IMG/VR virus record: IMGVR_UViG_2681813263_000003
Origin: a virus
Lineage: Duplodnaviria > Heunggongvirae > Uroviricota > Caudoviricetes
Length of the DNA: 5,142 nt
Reading direction: 5' to 3' (one strand)
Every line of letters begins with the position of its first letter. The stretch's first letter is position 1. The position numbers and the translations under genes are program-made. This document shows positions 1,379-5,131 of the stretch, piece after piece. The notes under the pieces are model-generated. The model worked only from the letters and a program-made list of their open reading frames with translations, had not been told where the DNA came from and did not search any database.

Positions 1379-1400
1379 TAATTATTCTCACTTGTAGGGA

Positions 1401-1460
1401 GGGGCGGGGCAAATCCCTGTGACCTGACGTCTTCCGGACTGCCCGCCCCATCGTTTTTTT
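1401..1460 (+). terminator. GC-rich imperfect dyad followed by a T7 tract; candidate rho-independent terminator and/or part of the cos region
   Basis: GGGGCGGGGCA (1401-1411) can pair with TGCCCGCCCC (1440-1449), giving about 8 GC pairs plus 2 more after a one-base bulge, around a loop of about 28 nt that contains the palindrome GACGTC (1426-1431). Followed by TTTTTTT (1454-1460). The loop is long for a canonical intrinsic terminator, hence the low confidence. Confidence 0.35.
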
Positions 1461-1499
1461 ATACCCGCGAAAAATGAAATTTAACCAGGAGTGCCGCAT

Positions 1500-1994
1500 A
1501 TGGCTGGAACGGCGGGGGGGTCCGGGCGTCGCCCCAAGCCAACGGCGCGCAAGGCGCTGGCCGGAAACCCCGGCAAGCGAGCCCTGAACAAAGATGAACC
1601 TGTTTTTACGCCCATCAAAGGTGTTGAGCCACCAGAGTGGTTCGCTGAAGAAGATCTCCCTCTCGCCACGATCATGTGGCAACTGACAACCAAAGAACTC
1701 TGCGGTCAGGGCCTGCTGTGCGTGACTGACCTGGCGGTACTTGAGCGGTGGTGCGTGGCCTATGAGTTCTGGCGACGTGCCGTGAAAAATATTGCCATAC
1801 AGGGCAACACCATCACCGGTGCAATGGGCGGCAGGGTCAAAAATCCGGAGCTGACCGCCAAAAAAGAACAGGAGTCCGAGATGAGCAGCACGGGGGCAAT
1901 GCTCGGACTCGACCCCAGCAGCCGCCAGCGTCTGATTGGCCTGGCGGGGCAGAAGAAAGCCACTAACCCGTTTCTGAAAATTATCGAATCATGA
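1500..1994 (+). CDS. terS: Terminase small subunit, P27 family
   Basis: Translation [36 protein letters not shown]... with downstream ...[22 protein letters not shown]... has the characteristic P27-family N-terminus and core. AGGAG at 1486-1490 favours ATG 1500 over the GTG 1491 used in the ORF track. Stop TGA 1992-1994 overlaps the large-terminase start (ATGA). Confidence 0.88.
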
Positions 1995-3724
1995 GCCGGA
2001 AATCTTACCCCAACGTAAATGCTGCAAATCAGTATGCCCGGGATGTCGTGCGCGGAAAGATTGTTGCCTGCCAGTTTGTGATTCAGGCCTGCCAGCGCCA
2101 TCTTGATGACCTGATGGCGGAAAAAAGTAAGTCGTTTCGTTACCGCTTCGACAAGGACCTGGCTGAACGGGCCGCGAAATTTATTCAGCTGTTGCCGCAC
2201 ACCAAGGGGGAGTGGGCATTCAAACGGATGCCCATCACGCTGGAGCCGTGGCAGCTATTTGTGATCTGCTGTGCGTTTGGCTGGGTCAATAAAGGCACCC
2301 GGTTGCGCCGCTTCCGGGAGGTGTACACCGAAATCCCCCGTAAGAACGGCAAATCAGCAATCTCTGCCGGTGTTGCCCTGTATTGTTTTGCCTGTGATAA
2401 CGAGTTTGGCGCGGAAGTGTATTCCGGTGCCACGACAGAGAAACAGGCGTGGGAAGTCTTTCGCCCGGCGCGACTGATGTGTAAACGCACACCCATGCTG
2501 ACGGAAGCGTTCGGGATTGAGGTTAACGCCTCAAACATGAACCGTCCGGAGGATGGCGCGCGGTTTGAACCGCTGATCGGCAACCCAGGTGATGGTTCAT
2601 CACCCCACTGTGCCGTGGTTGATGAATATCACGAGCATGCCACCGATGCGCTTTATACCACAATGCTTACCGGGATGGGGGCGCGACGTCAGCCACTGAT
2701 GTGGGCCATCACCACCGCCGGGTACAACATTGAGGGGCCGTGCTACGACAAGCGGCGGGAAGTCATCGAGATGCTCAACGGCTCGGTGCCTAACGATGAA
2801 CTGTTCGGGATCATCTATACCGTTGATGAAGGTGACGACTGGACCGGCCCGCAGGTGCTGGAAAAAGCCAATCCAAATATTGGCGTGTCGGTTTATCGCG
2901 AATTTTTGTTAAGTCAGCAGCAGCGTGCGAAAAATAACGCCCGTCTGGCAAACGTCTTTAAAACAAAACACCTCAATATCTGGGTGTCGGCGCGTTCGGC
3001 GTATTTCAACCTGGTGAGCTGGCAGAGCTGCGAGGATAAATCACTGACCCTTGAGCAGTTCGAGGGGCAGCCGTGCATTCTGGCCTTTGACCTGGCGCGT
3101 AAGCTGGATATGAACAGCATGGCGCGACTTTATACCCGCGAGATTGACGGTAAAACGCATTACTACAGTGTGGCCCCGCGTTTCTGGGTACCGTATGACA
3201 CGGTGTACAGCGTCGAGAAAAATGAAGATCGACGGACAGCCGAACGCTTTCAGAAATGGGTGGAAATGGGCGTTCTGACCGTTACCGATGGTGCGGAGGT
3301 GGATTATCGCTACATCCTCGAGGAGGCCAAAGCGGCGAACAAAATCAGCCCGGTCAGTGAGTCACCCATCGACCCCTTCGGGGCGACCGGGTTGTCACAT
3401 GACCTTGCTGATGAAGACCTGAATCCCGTCACTATCGTCCAGAACTTCACCAATATGTCCGATCCGATGAAAGAGCTGGAAGCAGCGATTGAATCGGGAC
3501 GTTTTCATCATGACGGCAATCCCATCATGACCTGGTGTATCGGCAACGTGGTCGGCAAAAACATGCCGGGTAACGATGATGTGGTGAAACCCGTCAAAGA
3601 GCAGGCGGAAAACAAAATCGATGGTGCAGTTGCGCTGATTATGGCGGTTGGCAGAGCCATGCTGTACGAGAAAGAAGACACGCTGTCTGACCACATTGAG
3701 TCCTACGGGATCCGCTCGCTTTAA
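1991..3724 (+). CDS. terL: Terminase large subunit (ATPase plus nuclease; Terminase_1-like)
   Basis: 577-aa ORF. Walker A-like motif EIPRKNGKS and Walker B-like motif [10 protein letters not shown] in the N-terminal ATPase domain; C-terminal RNaseH-like nuclease signatures ([11 protein letters not shown] ... [12 protein letters not shown]). Size and position downstream of terS are typical. Confidence 0.96.
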
Positions 3725-3735
3725 CTGAGGTAATT

Positions 3736-3918
3736 ATGATCATGCTGATTCTCGCGCCTCTGGTGGGCGTGCTGGGTGCGCTTTTGCTGGCGTATGGTGC
3801 CTGGCTGATTTATCCCCCGGCGGGTTTTGTTGTTGCCGGGGCGCTGTGCCTGTTCTGGTCGTGGCTGGTGGCGCGATATCTCGACCGTACACGGCAGTCT
3901 GTCGGCGGAGGTAAATAG
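3736..3918 (+). CDS. Small hypothetical membrane protein (60 aa, two predicted TM helices)
   Basis: [26 protein letters not shown] - PPAG - [19 protein letters not shown], followed by a short basic tail. GAGG at 3727-3730 lies 5 nt upstream of ATG 3736. Its stop TAG 3916-3918 overlaps the portal GTG start by one base. I recognise no family from the sequence alone. Confidence 0.55.
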
Positions 3919-5131
3919 TGTTCTTTTCGGGATTATTTCAACGAAAAAGCGATGTGCCGGTGACCACGCCAGCAGAACTGGCTGATGCTATCGGGCTGTC
4001 ATACGACACCTATACCGGAAAGCGGATCAGTAGCCAGCGGGCCATGCGCCTGACGGCGGTCTATTCTTGCGTCAGGGTGCTGGCAGAGTCTGTTGGTATG
4101 CTGCCCTGCAGTCTCTACAAAATCAGCGGTACCCTGAAAACACGGGCGGTGGATGAACGACTGCATAAGTTGGTTTCGGCAAAACCTAATGGCTACATGA
4201 CACCGCAGGAATTCTGGGAGCTGGTTATTGTCTGCCTGTGTCTACGGGGGAATTTTTACGCCTACAAGGTAAAGGCACNNNNNNNNNNNNNNNNNNNNNN
4301 NNNNNNNNNNNNNNGANNNNNNNNNNNNNNNNNNNNNNNNNNNNNNNNNNNNNNNNNNNNNNNNNNNNNNNNNNNNNNNNNNNNNNNNNNNNNNNNNNNN
4401 NNNNNNNNNNNNNNNNNNNNNNNNNNNNNNNNNNNNNNNNNNNNNNNNNNNNNNNNNNNNNNNNNNNNNNNNNNNNNNNNNNNNNNNNNNNNNNNNNNNN
4501 NNNNNNNNNNNNNNNNNNNNNNNNNNNNNNNNNNNNNNNNNNNNNNNNNNNNNNNNNNNNNNNNNNNNNNNNNNNNNNNNNNNNNNNNNNNNNNNNNNNN
4601 NNNNNNNNNGTTGNNNNNNNNNNNNNNNNNNNNNNNNNNNNNNNNNNNNNNNNNNNNNNNNNNNNNNNNNNNNNNNNNNNNNNNNNNNNNNNNNNNNNNN
4701 NNNNNNNNNNNNNNNNNNNNNNNNNNNNNNNNNNNNNNNNNNNNNNNNNNNNNNNNNNNNNNNNNNNNNNNNNNNNNNNNNNNNNNNNNNNNNNNNNNNN
4801 NNNNNNNNNNNNNNNNNNNNNNNNNNNNNNNNNNNNNNNNNNNNNNNNNNNNNNNNNNNNNNNCGAAGAGCTGGGGCTGGGATTTATCAACTATTCACTG
4901 GTGCCGTATCTGACCCGCATCGAACAGCGGATCAACACCGGACTGGTACGAAAAAGTAAGCAGGGCGTTTATTACGCCAAATTTAACGCCGGGGCGTTAC
5001 TGCGCGGGGATATGAAGTCCCGTTTTGAAGCCTACGCCACCGGGATCAACTGGGGAATTTACTCTTCCAATGACTGCCGCGACCTGGAAGATATGAATCC
5101 GCGTCCCGGTGGTGTAATGCCGATCAGTTAA
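3918..5131 (+). CDS. Portal protein, HK97 family; interior masked by Ns with an apparent frame change across the gap
   Basis: GTG 3918 is preceded by GGAGG (3906-3910, 7 nt spacing). N-terminal 120 aa (…RAMRLTAVYSCVRVLAESVGMLPCSLYK…QEFWELVIV…) resemble HK97-type portal proteins. After the N block the portal-like sequence (…FINYSLVPYLTRIEQRINTGLV…ATGINWGIYSSND…) continues to TAA 5129-5131 but in a different frame (pre-gap frame 0, post-gap frame 2). Total span of about 404 codons fits a portal protein. The end coordinate and integrity are uncertain because of the gap. Confidence 0.8.
4279..4863. other. N-masked or unresolved block (585 positions) containing isolated called bases GA (4315-4316) and GTTG (4610-4613)
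   Basis: Directly visible run of n characters; it lies inside the portal gene. Confidence 0.99.

Follow-up and report, generated by a model that had tools for sequence, protein, structure and literature searches.

In phage SfI, the ends of the virion DNA were compared with the prophage by direct run-off sequencing, which revealed a 10-nt gap of sequence 5'-TGCCCGCCCC-3' and led to the conclusion that packaging is by cos (PMC3636060). The same cos site is given for SfI, SfII, SfV and SfIV in the SfIV paper (PMC3851460). The virion DNA of HK97 carries 10-nt 3' overhangs (PMC9410871 Fig. 1 legend; PMC11331095), and cleavage of its cos site is stimulated by gp74 (PMC9410871; PMC11331095); a division of labour has been suggested in which gp74 cuts one strand and TerL the other (PMC11331095). 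The minimal TerS site of HK97 extends from +15 to +29 and includes an essential A-tract, with G21 read by Arg128 and T16 by Arg7 (PMC11331095). For the Stx2e phage phiP27, a 10-nt cos-site feature, CGCCCGCCCC, is annotated at 21806–21815 of the record (AJ298298).

Lambda cos (cosQ, cosN, cosB) is also cut in a site-specific, staggered manner, with the lysis genes on one side and the small terminase gene on the other, and its TerS site lies on the terminase-gene side. The 12-nt overhang (GGGCGGCGACCT, at the start of the lambda record) is a 5' extension, the small terminase is of the Nu1 type (annotated nu1), and no HNH gene is annotated near the site. IHF is a packaging factor of lambda (PMC13595911).

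Gene neighbourhood and cohesive end

The window, which is the whole stretch of 5,142 nucleotides analysed here, is the late region of a lambdoid prophage and contains the following genes.

27–524: lysozyme gene; intact ORF, full-length Pfam match
521–985: Rz; intact ORF, full-length Pfam match
1028–1378, + strand: HNH endonuclease gene, packaging accessory nuclease (HK97 gp74-like); Pfam HNH PF01844, E 1.4e-16
1500–1994, + strand: terS, P27-family small terminase; Pfam Terminase_4 PF05119, E 3.7e-20
1991–3724, + strand: terL, large terminase; Pfam TerL_ATPase and TerL_nuclease
3736–3918: 60-aa membrane-like, hydrophobic ORF between terL and the portal gene, from the ORF list
from 3918: portal gene, start only, interrupted by a masked stretch

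The arrangement of HNH (1028–1378), terS (1500–1994) and terL (1991–3724) around the intergenic spacer is also that of HK97. The HNH gene ends with the stop codon TGA at 1376–1378, and its product is 34% identical to HK97 gp74 (E 1e-9) and matches the GVE2 HNH nickase 5h0m over the full length (E 7.7e-12), an entry that corresponds to GVE2 HNHE (PMC5304195). TerL has 26% identity to HK97 gp2 over about 520 aa (E 8e-31). The terS product is 47% identical to L35 of phiP27; no BLASTP similarity to HK97 gp1 was detected, and no homologue was found among solved structures. The start of terS is taken as ATG 1500 because of the AGGAG ahead of it at 1487–1491 and the SfV annotation, where orf1 runs from SfV position 68; the mechanical ORF list places the start at GTG 1491. 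The 60-aa ORF at 3736–3918 has no Pfam match. The portal gene is masked at 4279–4863 (N, with a few bases left), and the prophage is visible over 5 kb only. When a 967-bp HNH–terS query was run against complete E. coli genomes, matches were returned for 1934 of 5426, the best at 96.5% identity.

Two further open reading frames were observed. An Rz1-like ORF (741–923) is nested in the +1 frame of Rz and has a lipoprotein-type N-terminus (…LVVVGC) and a proline-rich tail; the pair forms the standard spanin arrangement. An antisense ORF of 134 aa (1278–1682, - strand) covers the spacer and overlaps both HNH and terS, and is most likely spurious.

The elements of the HNH–terS spacer, discussed in turn below, are as follows.

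1397–1479: cos core, block common to prophages of this type and PICI-like satellites, delimited by an isolated satellite copy
1397–1415, + strand: conserved upstream cos element, composed of the G-box GGGAGGGGCGGGG (1397–1409) and CAAATC (1410–1415)
1416–1439: 24-bp variable spacer with GACGTC (1426–1431), ending in AC (1438–1439)
1440–1449, + strand: 10-nt cohesive end TGCCCGCCCC, identical to the SfI end mapped by run-off sequencing
1454–1460, + strand: T7, an A/T-rich run on the downstream side of the cut (+5 to +11)
1463–1479, + strand: ACCCGCGAAAAATGAAA at +14 to +30, candidate TerS recognition site, from conservation and HK97 analogy

Positions 1440–1449 agree with the mapped SfI cohesive end at 10 of 10 bases, and the 10-mer is unique in the window. 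The SfI record closes with ...GGACTGCCCGCCCC, the last base of which matches 1449, and reopens with GTCGTTTTTTTATACCCGCG at 1450. A search of phage records returned several that begin or end inside the HNH–terS spacer; the SfV and SfIV records start at 1433, 7 nt upstream of the 10-mer, and that of SfII starts at 1375, about at the HNH stop codon. The phiP27 cos-site feature is annotated at the aligned position, and the last 10 bases of the HK97 record align with 1440–1449 in the same register. The mapped SfI end, the phiP27 annotation and the HK97 register agree with one another and support the earlier proposal that the virion DNA ends in this spacer. We regard it as very probable, from these sequence comparisons, that a lambdoid prophage of SfV/SfI/phiP27 type has its cos site in this spacer and uses HK97-style, HNH-assisted cos packaging. 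The cos reading is correct but already known, and the identification is an ordinary one that brings nothing new on packaging itself. Its value lies in annotation: the ends of the virion genome are located for a prophage module that is very common in enterobacteria.

The Sf phages (SfI, SfV, SfII, SfIV) share with the window the identical cohesive end, flanks that are 97–100% identical from 1420 to the end of terS, and the gene order HNH, cos, terS, terL. They differ from it upstream, where the window is phiP27-like in its HNH gene and onwards as far as 1419, with about 74% identity to SfV-type HNH DNA; base +1 is A in the window and in SfV, and G in SfI. With phiP27 the window shares the position and register of the site, 9 of 10 overhang bases (the first being C in phiP27 and T here), the G-box, CAAATC and ACCCGCGAAA at +14 to +23, with 93.5% DNA identity in the HNH region and 47% identity in TerS. 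The 24-bp spacer of phiP27 is, however, a different one lacking GACGTC, and its A/T run is T5 rather than T7.

The cos site of HK97 likewise lies between an HNH gene and terS, with homologous HNH and TerL proteins. At its right end, GGGCAGGGGGGGGGATCAAATC is followed by 24 nt that finish in GAC, and the record closes with CGCCGCCAAA, so that a G-rich box and CAAATC stand exactly 34 nt before the end and AC precedes the overhang (GAC|CGCC...); downstream there is a CCCG motif followed by an A/T tract. The differences are the overhang itself (CGCCGCCAAA), the absence of the dyad (3 of 8 pairs), a TerS unrelated by sequence, a shift of about 4 bp in the CCCG and A-tract motif, and an HNH gene located 319 bp upstream of the end as compared to 71 bp in the window. 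The spacer does not fit a cos site of lambda type: the overhang sequence is different, TerS belongs to another family (Terminase_4, not Phage_Nu1), and there is no match to the consensus of IHF, which lambda uses.

Conserved columns and the inverted repeat

The HNH–terS spacer (1379–1499) comprises 121 bp. The preliminary description had noted in it a dyad, a GACGTC palindrome and a T tract, and all of these are present: GGGAGGGGCGGGGC occupies 1397–1410, TGCCCGCCCC 1440–1449, GACGTC 1426–1431 and T7 1454–1460. The dyad is a perfect 8-bp inverted repeat formed by GGGGCGGG (1401–1408) and CCCGCCCC (1442–1449), with 33 nt between the arms, and it lengthens to 10 pairs if a 1-nt bulge is allowed. 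GACGTC lies within the dyad loop but is not concentric with it (centre 1428.5, versus 1425 for the dyad).

By itself, the dyad symmetry is not beyond chance. Of 5000 dinucleotide-preserving shuffles of the spacer, 387 (7.7%) contained a perfect inverted repeat of 8 bp or more whose loop was 3–60 nt long, and the fold z-score of the 121-nt spacer is -1.2. The fold of 1395–1462 that had been suggested as a check does yield a GC-rich hairpin (-27 kcal/mol as RNA), but one no better than shuffled sequence (z -1.6, with 12 of 200 shuffles as good); the z-score of the DNA fold of the same segment is -1.7. It is through sequence homology, and not through the statistics of symmetry, that the element is recognised as real. 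Within the 4278 readable bases ahead of the masked stretch, T7 is the sole run of A or T of at least 7, and inverted repeats of at least 8 bp occur at one locus besides the spacer, namely a perfect 9-bp repeat inside terS (GAGTCCGAG at 1872–1880 and CTCGGACTC at 1902–1910). Scans of the spacer returned no promoter, no match to the IHF consensus and no Rfam match at E up to 1.

From 80 IMG/VR loci gathered via the HNH protein, together with phage records, 51 distinct cos variants were obtained in an ungapped register. Behind a nearly invariant left part, the right-hand sequence of these variants falls into four classes.

Class A, TGCCCGCCCC: the window and the Sf phages
Class B, CGCCCGCCCC or CGCCCGCCTC: phiP27
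Class C, CGCCCGCCAA or CGCCCGCCTA: cut position predicted from register
Class D, CGCCGCCTGA: cut position predicted from register

No phage record with informative ends was found for class C or D, 11 of 11 matches being internal to their records. The columns that are invariant or nearly so are those of the G-box and of AAAT, the AC directly in front of the overhang, and overhang positions 2–4, which read GCC. The G-box and CAAATC are present in all 51 variants, HK97 included, and also in the Klebsiella phage ST101-KPC2phi6.3 (L093), which has a TerS of class A type at about 75% DNA identity; the overhang of this phage is CGCCGCCTCA, and it is preceded by an unrelated 24-mer that likewise ends in GGAC. 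As had been proposed, the site can be compared with those of the HK97 family: they are alignable in register, and CAAATC precedes the mapped or annotated end by exactly 34 nt in HK97, phiP27 and SfI, the same distance as in the window. The 24-bp spacer in between is constant in length and class-specific in sequence, and the AC that closes it (1438–1439) is invariant (51 of 51 variants). These features provide a rule for locating cos in HK97-like prophages, which reads G-box, CAAATC, 24 nt ending in AC, and a 10-nt overhang. A G-quadruplex reading of the G-box was set aside, since the box has three G runs only; a literature search for the cos or G-box sequences returned unrelated papers only, mostly on G-quadruplexes and eukaryotic promoters.

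The inverted repeat does not follow the same pattern. In-register pairing of the arms is complete (8 of 8) only for the two ...CCCGCCCC overhangs (class A and phiP27); it amounts to 6–7 of 8 in class C and in the CGCCCGCCTC and CGCCCCCCTC variants, and to 3 of 8 in class D and HK97. Where the left arm varies (GGGGTGGG, GGGGAGGG, GGGGCAGG), there is no compensating change in the right arm, and the equivalent 68-nt segments of six types fold with z-scores from -1.7 to +1.07. GACGTC is confined to class A, the loci of which are 100% identical to the window over 1420–1499. Because pairing is not maintained across the classes and GACGTC is found in class A only, the dyad and the palindrome are incidental and not the functional signal. 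The right arm is the cohesive end itself and the left arm is part of the separately conserved G-box, the symmetry being a by-product of a G-rich box that faces a C-rich overhang. The view of the dyad as a conserved signal is hence not borne out, with pairing at 3 of 8 in class D and HK97 and no compensation; GACGTC, although it does sit inside the loop as described, was rejected as a functional palindrome, being off-centre and restricted to one class.

Downstream block and predicted cleavage

Downstream of the overhang, the window carries ACCCGCGAAAAAT at +14 to +26 (1463–1475). The same register is kept by ACCCGCGAAA in classes A and B (in phiP27 at +14 to +23), and ACCCGCG-A5 at +14 to +25 is strongly conserved, also in an isolated satellite copy of the site (described below), which retains the downstream sequence up to 1479. 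The block 1455–1492 (T6-ATACCCGCGAAAAATGAAATTTAACCAGGAGT) is identical at 38 of 38 positions in the Klebsiella phage, against 75% identity overall. The T tract is T6 in the satellite and the Klebsiella phage and T5 in ST64B and phiP27, and it lies at another distance in classes C and D and in HK97. The HK97 letters at +15 to +29 are CTAACCCGATTTTTT, which 1463–1479 of the window resembles, and by analogy the TerS site is predicted at about 1455–1479. The placement stays an analogy because this TerS is without similarity to HK97 gp1 or to any solved structure. The T run is better read as part of an A/T-rich recognition or bending region than as the tail of a terminator.

That the hairpin and T7 might instead, or in addition, constitute an intrinsic terminator, read through under late antitermination, was the other half of the preliminary description; such a terminator would end the lysis–HNH transcript, and Q-antiterminated transcription would pass it. 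The RNA of 1395–1462 can indeed form a long imperfect hairpin with a GC-rich base of 8–10 bp (-27 kcal/mol), followed by a run of U7. The geometry is nevertheless poor, as the arms are 33 nt apart where a short loop of about 3–8 nt is expected, and the 4-nt gap between the stem end at 1449 and T7 at 1454 compares with an expected U-tract offset of 0–2 nt. The terminator scan did not flag the site, Rfam returned no match for the spacer, and 12 of 200 shuffles folded as well (z -1.6). The hairpin is neither conserved nor covarying, with 3 of 8 pairs in class D and HK97 and z-scores of -0.4 to +1.07 for the equivalent segments of relatives, and the T run is shortened to T5–T6 in ST64B, phiP27 and the Klebsiella phage; the corresponding tract of HK97 is part of its TerS site (PMC11331095). 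A terminator here is distinctly unlikely, and this part of the description is not supported. It is highly improbable that the dyad itself is a recognition feature directing the cut, whether as a cruciform or as inverted half-sites for a dimeric terminase or HNH protein. The perfect 8-bp arms in all class A loci and in phiP27, and the coincidence of the right arm with the cohesive end, would fit such a role, but the two arms do not covary: the right arm differs between variants, the left arm hardly at all, 6–7 of the 8 pairs are left in class C and 3 in class D and HK97, and the left-arm variants GGGGTGGG, GGGGAGGG and GGGGCAGG are uncompensated. The Klebsiella phage, with its class A-type TerS and identical downstream block, has only a 5-bp match, and an inverted repeat of this size arises in 7.7% of shuffles.

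A different objection concerns use rather than identity, namely that the site descends from a cos but has fallen out of use in a defective prophage. Many E. coli prophages are cryptic, and only part of this one is visible, with the portal gene masked at 4279–4863. Against this, lysozyme, Rz, HNH, terS and terL are all intact ORFs with full-length Pfam matches, the cos core is that of inducible phages save at positions that vary among those phages, and an IMG/VR locus (L010) carries the same module at 99.6–100% identity. We consider disuse unlikely.

With a functional cos site as the preferred reading, concatemeric DNA would be cut here after induction by TerS and TerL together with the HNH protein. 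Staggered nicks, one in the top strand after 1449 and one in the bottom strand opposite 1439/1440, would leave 10-nt 3' cohesive ends, TGCCCGCCCC, and the virion DNA would then have its left end on the terS side and its right end on the HNH side. The 3' polarity is suggested by the SfI gap and by HK97: the 10-mer is absent from both SfI run-off reads, and therefore the 5' ends would be recessed and the overhang would be 3'. The top-strand nick is predicted at 1449/1450. The site would be composed of three parts: upstream, the G-box with CAAATC, always 34 bp away from the top-strand cut; in the middle, the region of the cut itself, AC|TGCCCGCCCC|; and downstream, the block of A/T run and ACCCGCG-A5, which is the most likely binding site of TerS by comparison with +15 to +29 of HK97.

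The GVE2 HNHE nick site is CG^GT, which is AC^CG on the other strand (Xu and Gupta; PMC3592412 Table 1). If a 3' overhang is assumed, the bottom-strand nick would fall at CG^GT in HK97, phiP27, the Klebsiella phage and classes B to D, and at CA^GT in the window (1438–1441). The invariant AC before the overhang thus corresponds to a bottom-strand nick of C(G/A)^GT, the specificity reported for the HNH nickases of GVE2 and phage gamma. The top-strand cut is not conserved in sequence, base +1 being A, G or C. The match fits the division of strands suggested for gp74 and TerL, and is for now a coincidence of motifs.

A tentative generalisation, which we find possible but rather doubtful, is that HK97-family cos sites follow a three-part grammar, and that some satellites combine such a site with a second cos. 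The G-box and CAAATC, always located at -53 to -35 relative to the top-strand cut, would travel with the HNH gene across mosaic junctions; the HNH protein would make a bottom-strand nick specified by AC, TerL the top-strand nick by measuring 10 bp; and a TerS-specific downstream block would complete the site. No description of such a grammar was found in the literature searched. Only three side observations could interest a specialist: the constant distance of the G-box, the bottom-strand cut at a nick motif of HNH type, and the satellites with two cos types.

Mosaic junction and satellite copy of the core

A mosaic junction lies inside cos at 1419/1420. The sequence to its left is of phiP27 type, with an HNH gene that is 95–97% identical to class B and C loci and 100% identity over 1379–1419. 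To its right the sequence is of SfV type, 1420–1499 being 100% and terS 97% identical, as compared to only 74% for SfV-type HNH DNA. The crossover falls within the conserved G-box/CAAATC block.

The HNH–terS query of E. coli genomes also returned an isolated 84-bp match where no gene is annotated. It belongs to a PICI-like satellite (L089; E. coli 51489, NZ_CM135151.1), in which positions 8001–8084 form an isolated cos copy of 83–84 bp that is 94–95% identical to the window, without HNH or TerL nearby. The block in common runs from AGGGAGGGGCGGG to GAAAAATGAAA, corresponding to 1396/1397–1479 of the window, and when the satellite was used as the query, its prophage matches spanned only 8002–8084, which is 1397–1479. 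Since the satellite keeps exactly 1397–1479 and nothing else of the module, the functional cos would appear to be a self-sufficient packaging signal of about 83 bp. The island adjoins clpS, with the cos copy at the island end, and encodes Icd-like and DUF4222 proteins, a primase, SSB, a major capsid protein, a decoration protein and a Nu1-like small protein. The same context is present in about 349 of 5426 complete E. coli genomes.

The satellite carries two unrelated cos types, a lambda-type site at 6745–6815 and the SfV/HK97-type core at 8002–8084. The lambda-type cosN region, GGGCGGCGATCT, precedes the Nu1-like (possibly Rpp-like) gene and is part of a 76-nt stretch that aligns with the lambda cos junction at 7 mismatches. 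In the PICI literature searched, only lambda-like cos1 and cos2 are described. If true, the presence of two cos types would let a widespread E. coli PICI-like satellite use two unrelated families of helper phage.
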